Source of the DNA: Eubacteriales bacterium
GTDB lineage: Bacteria > Bacillota > Clostridia > Oscillospirales > QAKW01
Length of the DNA: 37,801 nt
Reading direction: 5' to 3'
NCBI GenBank assembly: GCA_045576575.1
Contig: JAZNGR010000183.1
Location: 1 to 37,801 of the forward strand
Shown: positions 9,372 to 25,361 of the stretch, one piece after another
Layout of the letters: each line of letters starts with the position of its first letter
Numbering within the stretch: position 1 is the first letter of the stretch
The notes under the pieces: generated by a model
What the model was told of the DNA's origin: nothing
The model's database searches: none
Seen by the model: the letters and a program-made list of their open reading frames with translations, nothing else
Position numbers and translations under genes: made by a program

Positions 9372-10210
9372 CAGTTCTCACTTTCAAAATTGGTAATCAC
9401 AAAAACGGTGGACACCGCATTGACATTCACTGCCGGTTCCAATACCGCATATTGGGAGATGCCATGGCTCTCGGTCTTTAACTCTCTTACACGACCCAGC
9501 AAAATGCCTTTGGGAAAAACACCACCAACACCGCTGGTCTCTACTGCATCTCCGCTGCTGAGCACGACCCCTGCGTCTAAATACGCCAGTTTCAAAAGTC
9601 CGCTCTCCGAAAGGGCATAGTCCCAATCCAGAACACCCACATCACCGGTGGCAGTCACTATGGCACCCATTTCGCAAGAGGAATCCAAAACTGTCGTCAC
9701 CTTGCACCAGGTCAGCCCCAATTCGTTGATATAACCCACCACACCGTCTGCCGTCATTACCAGATCTTTTTCCTGCAAACCGTCGGCAGAGCCCTTATTG
9801 AGGGTCAAGGTATGGGAATAGCCGTTTTGATCGCTGCCCACCACCGTACAGGCGGCAAACTCAAAATCCGCATGCTGCTCGGCAATACCCAGCATGGCTT
9901 TGAGGCTTTTATTCTCATCCACATAACTTTCGGCATCCCGCAATAATTGCGCGATGGTCACCAGCTCGTTTTTGAGTTTTTCATTTTCTTCCTTCAGCGC
10001 ATCGTATTCGGTATAGGCCTCCACCAGATTTCCGCCGTAGCGGATCACGGTGGTGCAGAAATTCTGCAACGGAGTAATCAACGTACCGCCGATGTTCTCC
10101 AAAAAATTCATATGCCCGTCAGACGCGGTATCCAATACCATCATTCCCAACAGCAAAGCGGCAACAATGCAGATGGCAATAAAGGTATGGCTTTTTAAAA
10201 ACCCTTTCAT
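9371..10210 (-). CDS. mreC: Rod shape-determining protein MreC
   Basis: TM segment, coiled coil (LKEENEKLK), LNKGSADG, TSGVGGVFPKGI. Confidence 0.92.
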   Translation of the reverse strand: MKGFLKSHTFIAICIVAALLLGMMVLDTASDGHMNFLENIGGTLITPLQNFCTTVIRYGGNLVEAYTEYDALKEENEKLKNELVTIAQLLRDAESYVDENKSLKAMLGIAEQHADFEFAACTVVGSDQNGYSHTLTLNKGSADGLQEKDLVMTADGVVGYINELGLTWCKVTTVLDSSCEMGAIVTATGDVGVLDWDYALSESGLLKLAYLDAGVVLSSGDAVETSGVGGVFPKGILLGRVRELKTESHGISQYAVLEPAVNVNAVSTVFVITNFESEN

Positions 10211-11811
10211 CTGCGGGTGAGGGATGCCCAGAGAACAGGATTCTCTAAGCTCTTACCGGTACCCAGCGCAACACAATCCAAGGGATCCTTGGCAATATAA
10301 ACCGGCATACCGGTAGTCTTGCTGATCAGGGTATCCAAGCCGCGCAAAAAGGCACCGCCGCCGGTAAGGGTAATACCATGGTCAATAATATCCGCCGACA
10401 ATTCGGGGGGCGTATCTTCCAAGGTCTGCTTGATGGCGTCGATCACAATCTGCACCGATTCTGCCAGTGCTTCCCGAATATGAGCAGCACTGATGCTGAT
10501 ATTCTTAGGCAGACCGGTGATAAGGTCGCGCCCGCGCACGCTCATCTCCCCTTCTCCATCATAAGGATAAGCGGAGCCGATCTCAAACTTGATCTCTTCT
10601 GCGGTGCGGTCACCGATCAAAAGATTGAAATGCTTTTTCACATAAGCCACAATTGCGGCATCAAAGGCATCTCCCGCCACGCGAACCGAGCGAGAGGAAA
10701 CGATTCCGCCCAAGGAGATTACTGCTACCTCAGAGGTACCGCCGCCGATATCAACCACCATGCTGCCGGTAGGCTCACCCACAGGCAATCCGGCACCGAT
10801 GGCAGCCGCCAAAGGCTCTTCAATGATCCGAACATCCTTGGCACCGGTCTCATAAGCGGCATTTTCTACCGCACGATGCTCTACATCGGTTACACCGAAG
10901 GGAATACAAATCAAAATTCTCTTTTTGGTGAAAGCACTATTGCCCATGGTCTTACGAAGGAAAAAGCGCAGCATGGCAGAGCCGCTCTCAAAATCGGCAA
11001 TAACGCCTTCTTTCAAGGGGCGGACCGCACGGATACTATCGGGCGTTCTGCCGATCATATCCTTTGCTTCCTGACCAACAGCAACAACCCGATTCTGCAC
11101 TGTATCAATGGCGACCACGCTGGGCTCTCTCAACACAATGCCCTTGCCGCCGCGATAAACGATGGTATTGGCGGTTCCTAAATCAATGCCGATATCGGTA
11201 TAATTCCAAAATTTCAAGGTGTTCAAACCTTTTTTCAGTTTGTTCATAATTCCCTCGTTCTTATTCTCGTTCATTCTTTCACACTCTTTCTGAAAACGCT
11301 CTGTGGGGAAACCCATAACAGTATGATAACTGCCGCGGATCTTTTCCACAAACCCACTGTCTTGCACTCCGTATGCACCCGCTTTATCATAAGGCGAACC
11401 GGTGGCGATATAATCGGTGATCTCCTGCTCCGAAAGAGCACGGAATACCACCTCTGCTTGATCCACAAAGACCCGCTCCGCCGTTCCTTTACGCAGGTAT
11501 ACCCCGGTATAGACCCGGTGAGGCTTTCCCGATAGACGGCGAAGGGTGGCAAAGGCTTCCGCCTCGTCCTTGGGTTTGCCCAGAATCTCCCCTTCATAAA
11601 CCACCACCGTATCGGCGGCGACCAGCAAAGCGCCCTTCGTGCGCTCCACCGATTTCCCTTTGCCTGTTGCCAAGGCTTTCACATAATCGGCAGGGTCGGC
11701 AATCTGAACTGCCGCCTCATCAAAATCAGGCTTTATAACGGTAACTTGATGCCCCAATTCTTCCAGCAATTGCTTGCGGCGGGGCGAGGCGGATGCTAAT
11801 AGGATCCTCAT
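10207..11811 (-). CDS. mreB: Maf (N-terminal) - MreB (C-terminal) in-frame fusion ORF; MreB alone may start at ATG 11247
   Basis: 534-aa ORF with no internal stop. Maf motifs ILLASASPRR, AADTVV, DKAGAYGVQ; MreB motifs IGIDLGTAN, EPLAAAIG, VDIGGGT, LTGGGA. Confidence 0.88.
   Translation of the reverse strand: MRILLASASPRRKQLLEELGHQVTVIKPDFDEAAVQIADPADYVKALATGKGKSVERTKGALLVAADTVVVYEGEILGKPKDEAEAFATLRRLSGKPHRVYTGVYLRKGTAERVFVDQAEVVFRALSEQEITDYIATGSPYDKAGAYGVQDSGFVEKIRGSYHTVMGFPTERFQKECERMNENKNEGIMNKLKKGLNTLKFWNYTDIGIDLGTANTIVYRGGKGIVLREPSVVAIDTVQNRVVAVGQEAKDMIGRTPDSIRAVRPLKEGVIADFESGSAMLRFFLRKTMGNSAFTKKRILICIPFGVTDVEHRAVENAAYETGAKDVRIIEEPLAAAIGAGLPVGEPTGSMVVDIGGGTSEVAVISLGGIVSSRSVRVAGDAFDAAIVAYVKKHFNLLIGDRTAEEIKFEIGSAYPYDGEGEMSVRGRDLITGLPKNISISAAHIREALAESVQIVIDAIKQTLEDTPPELSADIIDHGITLTGGGAFLRGLDTLISKTTGMPVYIAKDPLDCVALGTGKSLENPVLWASLTRR
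11272..11811 (-). other. maf: Maf nucleotide pyrophosphatase moiety of the fusion ORF
   Basis: LASASPRR, ADTVV, GKP, LSGK.H.VYTG, DKAGAYG.Q, VMGFP. Confidence 0.88.
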
Positions 11812-19477: not shown

Positions 19478-20650
19478 ATGGATATCAGACAGGAATCCCT
19501 GAAAAAGCACTATGAATGGAACGGCAAGATCGAGGTAGTTACCCGCTGCCCCATCGAGACCCGCGAGGATCTTTCTTTGGCTTATACTCCCGGCGTTGCC
19601 GAGGCTTGCCTGGAGATCCAGAAGGACTATAATAAAAGTTATGAATTGACCCGCCGCAACAACATGGTTGCCGTTATCACCGACGGTACTGCTATTTTGG
19701 GTCTCGGCGACATCGGTCCCGAAGCCGGTATGCCTGTTATGGAAGGCAAATGCGCCCTCTTTAAGGCCTTCGCCGATGTAGACGCCTTCCCCATCTGCAT
19801 CCGCAGCAAGGATGTAGACGAGCTGGTACGCACCATCTATCTCATTTCCGGTTCCTTCGGTGGCATCAACCTGGAGGATATCGGAGCCCCCCGTTGCTTC
19901 GAGGTAGAGCGCAAGCTGAAAGAGATCTGCGATATCCCCATCTTCCATGATGACCAGCACGGTACCGCCATTGTGGTCGCCTCTGCGCTGATCAATGCGC
20001 TGAAGGTAGTCAAGAAAAACATCGGTGAAGTGAAGGTTGTTATCAACGGTGCCGGCTCCGCCGGTATCGCTATCGGTAAGCATCTTCTGAACATGGGTGT
20101 TAAGAACCTGACTATGGTAGACCGTTTCGGGATCATCTGCAAGGGCATGCCCGAACTAAACGAGGCGCATGCCGAGATGGCAGAGATCACCAATTTGGAT
20201 CATAAGATGGGCAACCTTGCCGACGCAATGAAGGGCGCCGATGTATTTATCGGTGTATCCGCCCCCAATATCGTCAGCGAAGAGATGGTCGCCTCCATGG
20301 CAACCGATGCCATTATGTTCCCCATGGCCAACCCCACCCCCGAAATCATGCCCGATAAGGCAAAAGCCGCCGGCGCACGGATCGTGGGTACCGGTCGGTC
20401 CGACTTTCCCAACCAGATCAACAATGTTTTGGCTTTCCCCGGCATCTTCCGCGGCGCTCTGGATTGCAGAGCCTCCTGCATCAACGAGGAAATGAAGGTC
20501 GCCACCTCCTATGCGCTGGCCGCCCTCATTCCCGACGAAGAACTGAACGAGGAAAATATCATCATCGGTGCTTTGGATAAGAGAGTGGCACCCGCTGTTG
20601 CCGAAGCAGTCATCGAGGCTGCTAAGAAAACCGGCGTCGCCCGCATCTGA
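19478..20650 (+). CDS. NAD(P)-dependent malic enzyme
   Basis: LAYTPGVA, DGTAILGLG, MEGK, INLEDI, FHDDQHGTA, GAGSAG, ANPTPE, GRSDFPNQINN. Confidence 0.95.
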   Translation: MDIRQESLKKHYEWNGKIEVVTRCPIETREDLSLAYTPGVAEACLEIQKDYNKSYELTRRNNMVAVITDGTAILGLGDIGPEAGMPVMEGKCALFKAFADVDAFPICIRSKDVDELVRTIYLISGSFGGINLEDIGAPRCFEVERKLKEICDIPIFHDDQHGTAIVVASALINALKVVKKNIGEVKVVINGAGSAGIAIGKHLLNMGVKNLTMVDRFGIICKGMPELNEAHAEMAEITNLDHKMGNLADAMKGADVFIGVSAPNIVSEEMVASMATDAIMFPMANPTPEIMPDKAKAAGARIVGTGRSDFPNQINNVLAFPGIFRGALDCRASCINEEMKVATSYALAALIPDEELNEENIIIGALDKRVAPAVAEAVIEAAKKTGVARI

Positions 20651-20681
20651 TAAAACAGCGCAGACTGCTAATGAATAATGT

Positions 20682-20708
20682 AGGCTCCCCGCAAGGGGAG
20701 CCTTTTTA
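20682..20708 (+). terminator. Intrinsic terminator
   Basis: AGGCTCCCC-gcaa-GGGGAGCCT followed by a T-tract. Confidence 0.88.
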
Positions 20709-20710
20709 TG

Positions 20711-20775
20711 TCTTTTCGTCGATGTGACCGCTCCACGTATCGCATCTCAACAAAATCCGCATCCTTTTTGGTCTG
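20711..20775 (-). repeat. Degenerate, internally deleted, inverted copy of the 100-bp hairpin element at 23237-23444
   Basis: CGTCGATGtgACCGcTCcaCGTATCGCAT matches the reverse complement of copy 1 at 24/29; after a 15-nt gap CTCAACaAAAtCcGCATCC matches at 16/19 (manual alignment). Confidence 0.75.
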
Positions 20776-20790
20776 ATTTTTGACTTTCTA

Positions 20791-20847: not shown

Positions 20848-22941
20848 ATGATTCTGATTATTGCGGAAAAGCCCAGTTTGGCAAGAAATATTGCAGCGGG
20901 CATCGGGAAGGCTACCCGTCGGGACGGGTATCTGGAATGTCAAGGATATCTCATCACCTGGGCCTTTGGTCATCTTTTTTCTCTTTGCGATATCGAGGAT
21001 TATACCGGTCCCACCGCCAGCGGGCGATGGTCCATGGAAAACCTCCCCTGCTTCCCCGAGTCTTTTCGGTTTCAACTGAAAAAAGGGGCAGATAAGCAGG
21101 TAGATCCCGGCGTGCAGCGGCAGTTCGATACCATTCGGACGCTTTGCATGCGCCCCGATGTGGACCGCATTGTCAACGCAGGAGACGCGGATCGGGAGGG
21201 TGAAATCATCATCCGCCTTTGCGTGGAGCATACCGGGGTGAAGGACAAGCCGTTTTTACGGCTTTGGCTCCCCGACCAAACCCCCGAAACAGTTGCCGAA
21301 GCGCTAACGGTTATGAAGGATGAAAGCGCCTACCAAAACCTTGCTGACGAAGGCTTTGCCCGTACCTATATAGATTGGCTCTATGGGGTCAATCTCACCC
21401 GCTATGCCACCTTAAAGACCGGCATGCTTTTGCGGGTGGGGCGAGTGATTGTGCCCATTGTGAAAGCGATCTATGATCGGGATAAATCCATTGAAAACTT
21501 CACGCCGGAACTTTATTATGCGGTGGTCAGCAACGCCGAGACCAAGGGCGAGCCCATCGAACTGACCTCTAAGGAAAAATTCGATAAAAACAGCAAGGCA
21601 AAAGCGGAAGAATATGCCGCGCGTCTCAACGGATGCGAAGCGGTAGTCACCGAAAAGAAGAAAAAAAAGACCACCCTCCAGCCCGGCAAACTCTATTCCC
21701 TTTCCAAACTGCAAAATGCCTTGGGCAAAAAATATAAAATGCCTATGGAAGAAAGCCTGAAACTGACCCAAGAACTATATGAAGCAGGATATATCACCTA
21801 TCCGCGCACCAATTCCGAGTACTTGGCGGAGCAAGAAAAGGGCAAGATCAAAAAGATTTTGGAATCGGTGAAAAATTTAGGCTACAACGTGAAATTTCGA
21901 GATGGAAAGACCATCTTTGACGATAGCAAGATCGAATCCCACTCCGCCCTCACCCCCACCTATAAAATCCCTCGCAAGGACCAATTGACTGAACGGCAGA
22001 TGATCGTTTATCAGATGATCTTTCGGCGATTTGCCGCTGTTTTTTGCGCAGAAGATTGCTTGGCAGAGAAGGCTGAAATGGTCATCAAAGTGGGTGATAT
22101 TGAAGAATTTCGCCTCAAAGGGACAATGATCCTCCAACCCGGCTGGATGAAATACGACGACGGCGGGCAAAAAAATAAAACCCTACCCCCTTTGGAAAAA
22201 GGAGATCGGGTAGAGATCGACTTTTCTCCCAAAGAAAAAGAGACCTCCCCGCCCCGCCATTATACCATCGAAACCTTAAACAATTATCTAAAAAATCCCT
22301 TCCGCGAAGATAAGGCGGCAGCGGAAGAGACCGATGATCGAGAAGAATACCGCGCCATGTTTGAGGGGCTGGAACTGGGCACCGAAGCCACCCGCACCGG
22401 CATTATCGGCAATGCCATCAAGAGCCAGTATATCGCCCTTAAAAAGGATACCTATTATCTCTTGCCCGGCGGTGCATACCTCATTGAAGAACTGACCCGT
22501 ATGGGCATTTCCATGGATAAATACAAAACCAGCCAATTGGGTCAAGCATTGAAAAAGGTCTATCGGGGTGAAATGCCCATTGCCGATAGCGTGGCTTTGG
22601 CGAAAGCCGAGATCCATGAGGTTTTTCATCCCGCACCCCAAACCCCTGAGACCGATACCGATACCGGTCTCTACGGCGACGAAGTGGGCACCTGCCCCCT
22701 TTGCGGCGGCAAGGTGGTGAAAGGGCGCTATGGTTACGGTTGCCTCTCTTATAAAGAGGGCTGTAAATTCCGCATCTACAGCACCATCTGCGGACGCACC
22801 ATCCCCATTTCCGCTGCAAGAGAACTGCTACAAAACGGCAGAACAAGAAAGCTTGCTGGGTTTATTTCCAAGAAAGGAAACCCCTTTGAAGCCTATTTGA
22901 AATTAGAGGATGGAAAAGCCGTTTTTGATTTTAACGACTAA
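20848..22941 (+). CDS. topB: Type IA DNA topoisomerase (topoisomerase III-like)
   Basis: IAEKPS, GHL, DADREGE (TOPRIM), catalytic ITYPRT, LGTEATR, C-terminal CPLCG...C...C zinc ribbon and GFISKKG repeat. Confidence 0.9.
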   Translation: MILIIAEKPSLARNIAAGIGKATRRDGYLECQGYLITWAFGHLFSLCDIEDYTGPTASGRWSMENLPCFPESFRFQLKKGADKQVDPGVQRQFDTIRTLCMRPDVDRIVNAGDADREGEIIIRLCVEHTGVKDKPFLRLWLPDQTPETVAEALTVMKDESAYQNLADEGFARTYIDWLYGVNLTRYATLKTGMLLRVGRVIVPIVKAIYDRDKSIENFTPELYYAVVSNAETKGEPIELTSKEKFDKNSKAKAEEYAARLNGCEAVVTEKKKKKTTLQPGKLYSLSKLQNALGKKYKMPMEESLKLTQELYEAGYITYPRTNSEYLAEQEKGKIKKILESVKNLGYNVKFRDGKTIFDDSKIESHSALTPTYKIPRKDQLTERQMIVYQMIFRRFAAVFCAEDCLAEKAEMVIKVGDIEEFRLKGTMILQPGWMKYDDGGQKNKTLPPLEKGDRVEIDFSPKEKETSPPRHYTIETLNNYLKNPFREDKAAAEETDDREEYRAMFEGLELGTEATRTGIIGNAIKSQYIALKKDTYYLLPGGAYLIEELTRMGISMDKYKTSQLGQALKKVYRGEMPIADSVALAKAEIHEVFHPAPQTPETDTDTGLYGDEVGTCPLCGGKVVKGRYGYGCLSYKEGCKFRIYSTICGRTIPISAARELLQNGRTRKLAGFISKKGNPFEAYLKLEDGKAVFDFND

Positions 22942-22956
22942 AAGGAAGTTCTTTTT

Positions 22957-23157
22957 ATGATCAGATTTGACCGCTTATGGACGACCATGAATGAGAAAAA
23001 TGTATCGACCTATCAGTTGCGGGAGCGTTGCGGCATTGATAGTAAAACCATTCGCCGTTTGCGCGCAAACGATAATATTGAAACCAAAACACTCAATAAA
23101 TTATGCGCCGCGCTAAACTGTAAATTATCGGACATCGCAGAATATATTGAAGATTAA
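22957..23157 (+). CDS. Small Cro/C1 (XRE, HTH_26-like) DNA-binding protein
   Basis: 66 aa; TYQLRERCGIDSKTIRRLR...TLNKLCAALNCKLSDIAEY. Confidence 0.85.
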   Translation: MIRFDRLWTTMNEKNVSTYQLRERCGIDSKTIRRLRANDNIETKTLNKLCAALNCKLSDIAEYIED

Positions 23158-23160
23158 ACA

Positions 23161-23193
23161 AAAAAGAGGTACACATCAATGTGTACCTCTTTT
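23161..23193. terminator. Bidirectional intrinsic terminator
   Basis: AAAAGAGGTACACA / TGTGTACCTCTTTT inverted repeat between convergent genes. Confidence 0.85.
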
Positions 23194-23212
23194 AATTTCA
23201 CTCGGTTTGATT

Positions 23213-23444
23213 GCCGTTTTCAACGGTTCTCGGTTCGACCGTTCAAAACGGATGCAGGTTTCGTTGAGGGAACCTGACGACGTATGCGATACGCCGAACG
23301 GTTTCATCGACGGAAGATGCGCCGTTTTCAACGATTCTCGGTTCGACCGTTCAAAACGGATGCAGGTTTTGTTGGCGCGACCCGAAGTCGTATGCGATAC
23401 TACAAGCGGTCGCGCCGACAGAAGATGCGCCGTTTTCAACGGTC
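23213..23444. repeat. Tandem 108-bp repeat: two 100-bp hairpin elements with 15-bp terminal inverted repeats plus one extra end (MITE/REP-like)
   Basis: GCCGTTTTCAACG recurs at 23213, 23321 and 23429; elements 23237-23336 and 23345-23444; element 2 is bounded by GACCGTTCAAAACGG / CCGTTTTCAACGGTC; 8-nt spacer CTCGGTTC. Confidence 0.9.
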
Positions 23445-23450
23445 TACACC

Positions 23451-25361
23451 TTACTCCGTCCTTAACGCCACCACCGGGTCTTTCTTGGCGGCCACCCTTG
23501 CCGGGAATAACCCTGCCGTTACGGTCAGCAGCACGCTGATCACCACCAATAATACGCCGCCCTGCCAAGGCAGAACCGCATTGAGGGTGGGTATACCGGT
23601 GACGGCATGGAGGATCAAGTTAATGATCACATTAAGTCCTAAGGTTACCAAAATACCAAGGGCGCCGGCGGTGAAGCCCACCAGCAAGGTCTCGGCATTG
23701 AAGACGCGGGAGATATCCCGCTTGGATGCGCCGATGGCGCGCAGGATACCGATCTCTTTGGTCCGCTCCAAAACCGAAATATAGGTGATGATCCCGATCA
23801 TAATGGAGGAGACTACCAGCGAGATGGCCACAAAGGCGATCAGCACATAGGAGATGGCATTGATAATGGTGGTCACCGAAGACATCAGCAAAGCCACATA
23901 ATCGGTATAGGTGATTTGCTGTTCTTCCTCTTTTCCCTCATTATATTGCTCGATCACATCGGCGATATGATCCTTATCCTCAAAGGTGGCGGCAAACAAA
24001 TGGATGGTGGAGGGGCTCTCAATATCCACATACCCTAAGGTCTTGAGATTCTCTTTCAGCGAACTCTCGGAATGAGAAGGCGGCATATACCGATCATAAT
24101 AATCTGCCAATTGCGCCTCGGTATAAGCAGGCGCCGCCTGATCCAAAGCACCTGCCAATGCGGCAGAAGGCAACGCAGAAAGTTGCTTACCGGTGGCTTC
24201 GGCATATTGAGCAGAGATCTGCTTTTCCATCTCTTCGCGAATATAGGCAAAGAGGGTTTCATCATCCATGGAGGAGATATACTCCTCAATGGTCGCTTCA
24301 TCCATATTAGAAGACTCCACAGCGGCGGCTTTTAACTGCGCCTCAACGGTGGCGCGATCCATTCCCGCCAACATCCCGTCGATGGTTTTATCCAGATACT
24401 CTTGGGTGGGGGTCGTCATGATCGCGGTATACAACTCCGCCTTGGCAGCAGCATCCAATCCCGCAATATACGCCTTGAAGGATTCGGCTTTTTCGGCATT
24501 GGTCGGCTCTACTTCTTCACCGGTTGCAAAAGGAAGACCATTGAAGATATCGGTTTTTTCATCTTCCAACTGCGCCTTCACGATCTCGCGTTTTGCTGTT
24601 TCTTCTTCAGCATAACGGGTCAGGGCGGCGGTATAGCCGATGGACCCGCTCATCATAGAAGCCGCGGCATCCTCATTGGGACGCAGGATACCAACGATTT
24701 GCAGTTCGATGCCGTTATCATACAGATACTTCATCCCGGTCTCGGTTTCGGAAATATCGGTCACAATCCCGCTTGCGGCATCGTATTGATAGTGGTCTGC
24801 TGCCAAAATCAGTTTGAACCGACGGGCGCAGATCTCTTCATAACTCCAGCTTTTTTGGGTAGTATCAATTTCGGTGCCGGTGAGATAAGCTTCCATTACC
24901 GAGGTCATATACTCTTCGGATTCCAGACCCAAAGCATAAAGGCAGATATCGCTGACTTCATTATTGGGATTGAGGATCAGCACCAATTCATGATGGGCGG
25001 TAGGCCAATGACCGTAGATCAAATCATATTGATCCTTTAAAAGCGGGTTGATAGGCTCGCCATTTTCCCCTTCCAGCATCTCTTCCCAAATATTGAAGGA
25101 TTGGGAATAGCCTTGCATCATACTACTGTTGGTGACGGTGCTGTTCATATTCCCGCCTACCATGTTTTCCATCAGTTCCATCACATCGGATTTTACGATT
25201 TTTTCACTCTCATCCTTGGTGAAGATATCAAACTGCAGGTCATAGGAATACTGCACCGCGCTGAGATAGGGATCCAAACCGCTCTCTTCGCTTTCAATAA
25301 AGGCTTTGAAGGCTTTAAGGTCGTTGGTCTCCGTCTCGGCGCCGGTAAGGGCATTCATCAT
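23451..25361 (-). CDS. MacB/FtsX-type ABC permease, C-terminal part of an apparently frameshifted ATPase-permease gene
   Basis: ISVLERTKEIGILRAIGA and DPVVALR motifs, 3 C-terminal TM segments; no N-terminal signal or TM segment. Confidence 0.75.
   Translation of the reverse strand: MMNALTGAETETNDLKAFKAFIESEESGLDPYLSAVQYSYDLQFDIFTKDESEKIVKSDVMELMENMVGGNMNSTVTNSSMMQGYSQSFNIWEEMLEGENGEPINPLLKDQYDLIYGHWPTAHHELVLILNPNNEVSDICLYALGLESEEYMTSVMEAYLTGTEIDTTQKSWSYEEICARRFKLILAADHYQYDAASGIVTDISETETGMKYLYDNGIELQIVGILRPNEDAAASMMSGSIGYTAALTRYAEEETAKREIVKAQLEDEKTDIFNGLPFATGEEVEPTNAEKAESFKAYIAGLDAAAKAELYTAIMTTPTQEYLDKTIDGMLAGMDRATVEAQLKAAAVESSNMDEATIEEYISSMDDETLFAYIREEMEKQISAQYAEATGKQLSALPSAALAGALDQAAPAYTEAQLADYYDRYMPPSHSESSLKENLKTLGYVDIESPSTIHLFAATFEDKDHIADVIEQYNEGKEEEQQITYTDYVALLMSSVTTIINAISYVLIAFVAISLVVSSIMIGIITYISVLERTKEIGILRAIGASKRDISRVFNAETLLVGFTAGALGILVTLGLNVIINLILHAVTGIPTLNAVLPWQGGVLLVVISVLLTVTAGLFPARVAAKKDPVVALRTE

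Follow-up and report, generated by a model that had tools for sequence, protein, structure and literature searches.

A tandem array of long hairpins lies at positions 23213–23444 of contig JAZNGR010000183.1, whose 37,801 nt (hereafter the window) derive from a metagenome-assembled genome (MAG) of an Eubacteriales bacterium. The array is real, and it is composed of two units and a half-site. We put the probability at about 0.6 that it represents a genus-restricted family of palindromic extragenic repeats, which serve as modules at gene ends and would act there as hairpins. The assembly that contains the window (G000; 1.96 Mb in 283 contigs, 87.6% complete) was searched for further copies and compared with its closest sister species, G022, and with other genomes of the genus and order. 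The family appears to be undescribed, with no named family laying claim to it, and to be of a familiar kind, that of the gene-end repeats exemplified by the repetitive extragenic palindromes (REPs) with their bacterial interspersed mosaic elements (BIMEs) and by BOX and SPRITE. On present evidence it is not a new type of system. Searches of the literature retrieved no publication that treats this family, nor any on REP-like repeats in uncultured Oscillospirales.

Repeat analysis of the window returns two 108-nt copies (23213–23320 and 23321–23428) with 83% identity, as well as a 15-nt arm that is present three times, at 23213, 23321 and 23429, and thereby recovers the 108-bp period noted in an earlier interpretation of this DNA made from its letters (the sequence-only reading). 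The units proper, for which coordinates are given in Table 1, are 83% alike, and their differences are mostly compensatory; the compensatory changes quoted in the sequence-only reading are indeed present, as is the invariant apical GTAT-GCG-ATAC hairpin in both units. That each element of about 100 nt folds into one long hairpin, as had been proposed, is confirmed by calculation. As RNA, unit 1 reaches −42.6 kcal/mol (z −5.24) and unit 2 −56.9 kcal/mol (z −8.24), in both cases as one long hairpin and with none of 200 shuffled sequences folding as well. Folded as DNA, unit 1 gives −22.2 (z −3.0) and unit 2 −30.6 (z −5.87). The complementary strand as RNA is less stable yet folds as well (−37.3 for unit 1 and −49.4 for unit 2).

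A DNA search of the G000 assembly revealed many further copies at 75–83% identity, and an iterated nhmmer profile yielded 41 hits at E < 1e-3. A covariance model constructed from 11 short copies of the same genome (model R1) also gave 41 matches, at 37 places, four of the matches being the opposite strand of the same place and seven comprising the apical core only, inside a second repeat family. About 30 places in the MAG hold copies of the family under study, and with copies found across the genus the earlier description of a multi-copy, non-autonomous repeat resembling REPs or MITEs (miniature inverted-repeat transposable elements) stands. The second family, of about 230 nt, combines the same apical core hairpin and loop with other outer stems and a terminator of its own. 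It is found in G000 at C254:4257-4480, C43:7516-7740, C10:1870-2095 and C67:1809-2030 and on contigs C1, C56 and C272, in copies that are 83–97% alike, stand behind unrelated genes and are often at contig ends; one copy is also present in G022.

All bounded copies of the main family follow one plan, that of unit 1: a 14–16-nt 5′ arm, a GGATGCAG box, a freely varying stem (P2 in unit 1), a small purine-rich internal loop, an apical GTAT-loop-ATAC hairpin, the return stem (P2′), a GCGCC box and the 3′ arm, together 100–165 nt with about 41 pairs. Within the arms a C-C mismatch is conserved, and the GGATGCAG/GCGCC box contains a bulged A next to an invariant T-G pair. About half of the aligned bounded copies (15 of 26) are long forms of 133–165 nt, in which a terminator-like hairpin, preceded by an A tract and followed by a T tract, is set between the return stem and the 3′ box to give a three-way junction. 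This A-tract/hairpin/T-tract branch, potentially terminating both ways, was present in all 15 long forms examined; in short forms a terminator lies just beyond the element. In one subfamily a perfect long stem replaces the internal loop, and two copies contain a further module of about 125 nt, nested within or alongside the element. Arrays extend to four or five units (contig C165) and read as (3′ arm, spacer, 5′ arm, core) repeated, followed by a closing 3′ arm, and decayed copies shrink to hairpins made of the arms only or of the terminator only. The module of about 125 nt, which itself forms two hairpins, occurs at G000:C20:15595-15720 and G000:C283:3970-4095; it takes the place of the apex in one long form and is appended beside another element, and in G022 the element orthologous to the C20 one shows a plain apex in its place.

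That these copies are held to a common structure is shown by strong covariation. Already among the 11 short forms of G000, 25 of the 41 predicted pairs have changed on both sides with pairing kept. Our main alignment comprises 34 copies from 20 species (33 distinct rows), and in it standard pairs occupy 94.8% of cells, against 75.7% in column shuffles and 40–48% when the partners are slid by 1–3 columns. Double changes are seen at 32 of the 41 pairs, and none of 500 shuffles attains any of the five measures scored. The alignment was fitted to the model, a bias toward structure; the slid controls and an independent RNAalifold result nevertheless argue that the covariation signal is real. The proposal in the sequence-only reading that structure rather than sequence is conserved is thus borne out. 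Unpaired and special positions are held as well: the arm mismatch is C in 28 of 34 and 29 of 34 copies on its two sides, the bulged A is found in 32 of 34 and the adjoining T-G pair in 33 of 33, and the internal loop reads G (31/34), A (31/34), A (26/34) on its 5′ side and G (29/34), A (34/34) on its 3′ side. The loops of units 1 and 2 are each a single-base variant of this family loop. A K-turn or loop-E reading of the internal loop was considered and rejected by eye, as the bases of the would-be three-base bulge are paired in the consensus and one subfamily is without the loop.

These data bear directly on the idea, raised in the sequence-only reading as a speculation, that a constant scaffold with variable 6–7-nt internal-loop strands makes the elements guide-type RNAs (bridge RNA, omega RNA or similar) with programmable loop strands. 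The two window units do differ in the bases flanking the apical hairpin, and the hairpin does have an internal loop. The variable two-sided loop dissolves, however, because the differing bases are mainly covarying pairs of the lower apical stem and the true loop is small and among the most conserved parts of the family (26–34 of 34 copies per base). No IS110 or TnpB gene was found in G000 (PF01548 and PF07282, 0 matches each), none of the 40 open reading frames (ORFs) scanned in the window encodes a transposase or recombinase, in agreement with what the sequence-only reading had stated of the window, and the roughly 30 copies stand behind unrelated housekeeping genes. We therefore regard a guide function as extremely improbable.

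The position of the copies relative to genes is strict, which the sequence-only reading had missed, together with the long forms and their embedded terminator and a third, degenerate copy in the window (20641–20777). Using ORFs of at least 80 aa called by a longest-frame rule, with no gene finder, we find that in 21 of the 24 G000 copies that are bounded or terminal in an array the stop codon of an opposite-strand ORF starts between −15 and +6 nt from the element 3′ end, two of the three misses being at contig ends, and that the same placement holds for 16 of 19 copies from 17 other species. The mirror arrangement, in which a same-strand ORF ends at the 5′ arm, is seen in 2 of 24 copies in G000 and 2 of 19 in the relatives. 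The anchoring stop codon is TAA in 15 cases and TGA in 6, and it is formed by the outermost arm bases or by the TCA at the arm mismatch, which on the gene strand gives TGA in both arms. At four loci (contigs C247, C7, C49 and C221) convergent genes each have their own inverted copy around a central terminator. Since the opposite-strand gene has its stop codon next to, or within, the 3′ arm, the element lies in, or replaces, the terminator region of that gene. The anchoring genes are core genes, present in 30 of 30 genus genomes and fixed in place, and the window itself holds housekeeping genes only.

One could argue from this placement that the elements are ordinary intrinsic terminators that are merely alike, with neither common descent nor spread. 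They are located where terminators stand, their arms contain A and T runs, the long forms enclose canonical terminators, and the sub-threshold Rfam hits described below are all to terminators or attenuator-like leaders. The sequence features that the copies share contradict this explanation: they can be aligned over 100 nt, unpaired bases, boxes and apex are conserved, and one model scores them at up to 115 bits. The elements moreover form tandem arrays, occur in one genus and a few neighbours, and give way to native simple terminators at empty orthologous sites, and we judge chance resemblance among terminators very unlikely. After the gene of a 575-aa protein, genome G042 displays an arms-only hairpin with a T run where its relatives hold the full element, which suggests that elements can decay into, or arise from, simple terminators.

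The taxonomic range of the family is narrow. At E ≤ 0.001, model R1 has matches in 26 of the genus's 29 further species, the exceptions being G011, G014 and G019. In two sister genera 1 genome out of 7 and 2 out of 12 have a match (3 of 19 together), and of 16 genomes from other families of the order none has one; per-genome scoring covered the best 80–96 candidates, and up to about 33 copies per genome are among the matches listed. An exact-pattern scan for the apical core, with one genome per species, gave at least 80 matches, some from ruminant guts, and among the matches listed (80) all are MAGs of uncultured Eubacteriales, Clostridia, Oscillospiraceae or Acutalibacteraceae. Plasmid and phage collections contained no match to the family. 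Rfam (release 15) returned no relevant match for window positions 22800–23800 at E up to 10 or for 14 other loci at E up to 1; in both searches its hits were all far below the gathering scores and were to look-alikes of terminators or hairpins, those at the 14 loci being to terminators or attenuator-like leaders. The family is thus restricted to one genus of uncultured gut Clostridia and a few neighbours.

Between G000 and G022 the orthologous copies are nearly identical. The window block 23321–23450, which spans the unit-1 3′ arm, the spacer, unit 2 and 6 nt beyond, matches G022 at 129 of 130 positions, and the coding sequence adjoining it matches at 533 of 600, with 54 of 200 third codon positions different. 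For the copy on contig C16 the figures are 114 of 116 and 562 of 600, and for that on C226 there are no substitutions over 96 aligned nucleotides (two small indels) next to coding sequence with 545 of 600 identities. Together these three copies have 3 substitutions in 342 nt as compared with 160 in 1800 nt of adjacent coding sequence, a conservation about ten times tighter than that of the neighbouring genes.

At the same time, elements are gained, lost and altered. Eight G022 copies were compared with G000, one of which falls at G000 contig ends, leaving seven comparable loci. Element content differs at five of the seven, in unit number, by a truncated copy, by another interior between identical arms, by an extra unit or by an extra outer arm. 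At the site behind the permease gene that anchors the window array, the element is present in seven species (two units in G000, one in G022, two in G004, the long form in G041, and in addition G045, G024 and G043), and remnants of it are left in G042 and G044; the remaining species examined lack it and have a plain terminator or an overlapping gene there. Laid onto the permease tree, this pattern calls for a minimum of two or three events of gain or loss. The G000 copy behind one gene of the C247 locus is most like the copy behind the opposite gene in two other species. In many species of the genus the C-terminus of the 575-aa protein (G000:C20:15915-17639, minus strand) reads ...VEPKLPVEEIK or nearly so, the last five residues varying, and in one subclade this tail is swapped for element-encoded residues or cut by an element-borne stop codon. 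Repeats of this kind can therefore replace native terminators and even rewrite the last residues of proteins. A further type of intergenic repeat, consisting of reiterated AGTGATATT-like words and short hairpins, was seen at G022:C141:33480-33800 and in G020, where it fills gene-end intergenic sites at which other species have the main element or a plain terminator.

How might such modules work? In the window, the site at 23162–23193 is the sole terminator-like site between the helix-turn-helix (HTH) gene and the permease gene, apart from a 5-pair arm hairpin, and as the array is situated between the permease stop codon (23451) and this only terminator it should form part of the permease operon's transcript, as a 3′ untranslated tail. 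Most simply, that transcript would be expected to run through the array and stop at 23162–23193. A search for RNA runs over window positions 22800–23900 listed none, apart from one run of conjectural type that contains 0.05 of the sequence words. By analogy with what is thought of REP/BIME, ERIC, BOX and SPRITE repeats, the element as a single-stranded hairpin at gene ends may block 3′-to-5′ RNA decay, help termination or insulate convergent genes, or do more than one of these. The family would have spread and turned over as repeated DNA through recombination at the arms, with no dedicated transposase in evidence.

Several observations weigh against this account of gene-end hairpin modules. 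No mobilising enzyme was found, and the flanks of 44 copies show no consistent target duplication. Copies at different loci are at best about 83% identical in G000, and among 15 copies in G024 the best identity is 90% and the median 75%, so that there is no sign of recent transposition or of a burst. No promoter-like site was detected in 22900–23600, and the window units have only a 4-T run after the inner stem and are not called by a terminator scan. In the paired columns of the 34-copy alignment G-T outnumbers A-C by 114 to 13 (81 to 13 without the invariant pair), and of the two strands the element strand gives the more stable fold in 19 of 24 copies (Wilcoxon p 0.002). The best-folding strand is antisense to the anchoring gene and not the strand expected to be transcribed, which is the main unexplained point. 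The G-T excess stems largely from three to five columns shared by descent and is weaker in the long forms (51 versus 35 G-T pairs, summed from the per-copy strand comparison). The conflict could be reconciled by a single-stranded DNA form, by a role against convergent antisense read-through, or by selection for mismatches in the sense RNA. The asymmetry of T runs in the embedded terminators was dropped as a guide to the transcribed strand, since the tracts of 15 copies, with 68 A before and 54 T after, are too symmetric.

The strand preference is what would be expected if the elements were stand-alone structured small RNA genes, transcribed from the element strand (plus in the window) and with the conserved loops as a protein-binding or catalytic core. 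The surplus of G-U over A-C on that strand, the invariant U-G pair (33/33) adjoining the bulged A (32/34), the conserved purine loop and apical hairpin, the between-species sequence conservation above that of neighbouring coding sequence, and the terminator that follows the main hairpin on the element strand of long forms all suit this explanation. There is, however, no promoter-like site upstream in the window, upstream sequence is not conserved among copies, and about 10 of 25 copies have their upstream neighbour on the opposite strand, which leaves transcription with no obvious driver. A long-form transcript ending at the terminator would be without the 3′ arm, with which the 5′ arm covaries; one subfamily is devoid of the internal loop; and strict anchoring at stop codons has no reason under such a scheme. 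With no Rfam family matched at the window (E up to 10) or at the 14 other loci (E up to 1), we hold small RNA genes to be a rather improbable explanation.

A folded single strand of DNA is also central to a different proposal, namely that each unit is a site- and orientation-specific mobile cassette that is processed as a folded single strand, a circle of one unit, whose joined arms would make a palindromic junction, integrating through that junction at an arm-like sequence at a gene end by means of a host or phage recombinase, as likened to integron attC sites or to IS200/IS605 ends. We consider this unlikely. In its favour is one clean filled/empty pair, in which the short form at G000:C20:15820-15926, missing in G022, brings a new stop codon with it. 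Native coding sequence is directly repeated over 9 nt on either side of this short form, whose outer 5′ arm is an inverted copy of that repeat. The C226 copy has a like layout of direct repeat, spacer and inverted arm, with a repeat of 14 nt. The order of arrays, repeated and closed by a final 3′ arm, is in line with this proposal, as are the better folding of the strand opposite to the gene's coding strand, the swapping of interiors between identical arms at an orthologous site, and the conserved mismatch, bulge and wobble pair, expected of marks for protein recognition. The C20 and C226 layouts fit integration of a one-unit circle at arm-like sequence, and they fit equally well the decay of tandem units after unequal crossing-over, with the palindrome extended by templated repair. 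The comparison of empty sites for target duplications, suggested in the sequence-only reading, gave a divided answer: direct repeats of 9 nt (C20) and 14 nt (C226) exist, but none is consistent over the 44 copies, and the clean empty site is a single one.

Nor did enzymes turn up in support of cassette mobility. The sequence-only reading had recommended looking for copies beside RAYT/IS200-type or IS110 genes, RAYT being the tyrosine transposase associated with REPs, and neither gene type was found in G000. For Y1/RAYT transposases, PF01797 has 0 matches in this 87.6% complete MAG; across the genus it occurs in 12 of 30 genomes irrespective of the repeat, being absent from the repeat-rich, 94–99% complete G024, G022, G003, G016 and G017 and present in the repeat-free G011. 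The missing TnpB and IS110 genes have been mentioned. No integron integrase scored above the cut-off in G000 (best TIGR02249 score 64.4 bits versus a cut-off of 265), a genome that holds seven tyrosine recombinases. A parent insertion sequence with the same ends was not seen in a search of three transposase families and the tyrosine recombinases, in a MAG that is incomplete and whose contigs are broken at repeats; in every bounded copy the two arms are no more than about 250 nt apart and enclose no ORF. The lack of near-identical copies at different loci, the anchoring to core genes held in place across the genus and the lack of matches in plasmid and phage collections are likewise against mobile cassettes. 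A more elaborate version, in which the elements are both the recombination sites and the cargo of an undescribed gene-end cassette system of Clostridia, with an excised circle, a folded strand opposite to the coding strand, marks read by a recombinase and insertion into last codons, is less probable still. If true, each unit would bring its own stop codon, and long forms their own bidirectional terminator, in replacement of the native gene end.

Among known repeats, the REPs and BIMEs of Proteobacteria are among the closest relatives in kind to the gene-end modules proposed here. According to the parts of a survey drawn on here (PMC3733652), these are many-copy, extragenic, imperfect palindromes clustered at gene 3′ ends, occurring like the present family as singles, arrays and inverted pairs, varying in presence between related species, and thought to act as RNA hairpins in co-transcribed messages. 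REP termini can, by the same account, provide stop codons to flanking ORFs, a trait matched by the position of our elements at gene 3′ ends and by their supplying, at times, of the stop codon; some classes, such as the CGTC REPs, resemble the present family in having no dedicated transposase (PMC3733652). The differences are equally clear. At 100–165 nt, our elements have three to five times the length of REPs (~20–40 nt), and unlike these they contain boxes, a loop, an apical hairpin and an optional terminator branch. The sequence-only reading had likened the outer end of the array to a GTAG-type REP: GTAG does adjoin the outer end of the window copy, but of 44 family copies only three, the window copy included, have this tag on the opposite strand near the 3′ end, and one has it at the 5′ end. 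Where REPs go with RAYT, we find no RAYT gene in G000 and no correlation with Y1 genes across the genus. The host is a genus of Clostridia, and the word Firmicutes is not in the main text of the REP survey (PMC3733652). The family accordingly lacks the tag, the enzyme and the size that define RAYT-type REPs, and of MITE traits it shows only some: terminal inverted repeats, as 14–16-nt arms that covary between copies, and presence or absence at orthologous sites, as seen at the permease site, at the five G000/G022 loci and at C247.

Closer in host, the BOX, RUP and SPRITE repeats of the Firmicute Streptococcus pneumoniae are, in the sections of a report used here (PMC3049150), shorter than 200 bp and over-represented close to gene 3′ ends and between genes that converge; BOX has a modular make-up, its middle module being absent or repeated in some copies, SPRITE, with A-run and T-run ends, looks like an over-long terminator and is without a clear target duplication, and the spread of all three appears old and slow. 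Compared by these descriptions only, they share with our family a small size, tight folding and a location near gene 3′ ends, and our family is stricter in placement (stop codon within −15 to +6 nt, one orientation), with a longer hairpin (~41 pairs) and a between-species conservation stronger than that of adjacent coding sequence. The Efa elements of Enterococcus faecalis are located near the 3′ ends of coding sequences, as far as the portion of the source used here describes them (PMC1590033). Like our family, Efa and EFAR are Firmicute palindromic repeats larger than REPs; they belong to another host class and are compared by description only. EFAR of E. faecalis is reportedly modular, placed 0–20 bp from stop codons, and said to replace terminator-like stem-loops upon insertion.

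The attC sites of integrons offer the other instructive comparison. They are imperfect palindromes of similar length that lie directly behind or overlap an ORF stop, with structure conserved above sequence, conserved unpaired bases, a variable central part, and a folded strand opposite to the coding strand. Our elements resemble them as stop-adjoining palindromes with conserved unpaired bases and a better-folding non-coding strand. Their arms are without the attC core-site consensus, and, unlike attC sites, the copies are dispersed instead of gathered on one platform and their neighbours are fixed core genes, not cassettes, in a genome with no integron integrase above cut-off.

The interest of the family resides in part in its host. 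Gene-end palindromic repeats have been well studied in Proteobacteria and pneumococci and hardly described in the uncultured Clostridia that dominate animal guts. With about 30 copies in a 2-Mb genome, strict placement and orientation at stop codons, strong covariation, and unit gain, loss and swapping that are visible without a RAYT-type transposase, it makes a clean study case; placement, conservation, terminator branch, gene-end rewriting and the strand puzzle make it a good model. Which strand folds best and which should be transcribed is a concrete question for experiment. On the practical side, such repeats break MAG assemblies at contig ends and run the risk of being mistaken for RNA genes or guide RNAs.

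The features of the window that concern the family are given in Table 1.

Table 1. Array components, flanking features and a further family member in the window.
Feature	Positions	Strand	Basis or remark
Third family member, degenerate long form	20641..20777	-	nhmmer E 1.6e-4; truncated apex, embedded terminator hairpin
Cro/C1-type HTH gene, 66 aa	22957..23157	+	Pfam PF13443, E 1.1e-16; convergent with permease gene
Bidirectional intrinsic-terminator hairpin	23162..23193	both	15-bp perfect arms, A tract before, T tract after
Half-site, 3′-arm type	23213..23227	+	direct repeat of 3′ arms of units 1 and 2
Spacer, 9 nt, half-site to unit 1	23228..23236	+	sequence recurs at 23336-23344
Unit 1, short form	23237..23335	+	model R1 95 bits, E 3.4e-22
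Spacer, 9 nt, unit 1 to unit 2	23336..23344	+	read from sequence
Unit 2, short form	23345..23444	+	model R1 113.3 bits
FtsX-type ABC-transporter permease gene	23451..25361	-	Pfam PF02687, E 6.7e-19; stop 23451-23453

The permease gene, with orthologues in 30 of 30 genus genomes, is the anchor of the array, the 3′ arm of unit 2 stopping 6 nt short of its stop codon. At the other side of the array, the half-site is either an array junction or the leftover of an earlier unit; in G022, where the orthologous array is without unit 1, the last bases of a unit interior precede the equivalent half-site. The spacer between half-site and unit 1 is able to form a small junction hairpin together with both flanking arms. 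The terminator hairpin is common to the HTH gene and the permease operon and is called on the minus strand by the terminator scan. In G022 the small HTH gene is not at the orthologous position, and a terminator of the type of the second repeat family precedes the array there. The degenerate copy at 20641–20777 follows the placement rule: a plus-strand malic-enzyme gene, so labelled on the basis of Pfam PF00390 and PF03949, has as its TGA stop codon (20648–20650) the conserved TCA of this copy's 3′ arm, with a stop offset of −10. Elsewhere in the window, positions 10207–11811 (minus strand) contain a 534-aa frame with a Maf domain (residues 2–178) followed by a complete MreB (205–524), which is either a maf-mreB fusion or two genes with no in-frame stop between them.

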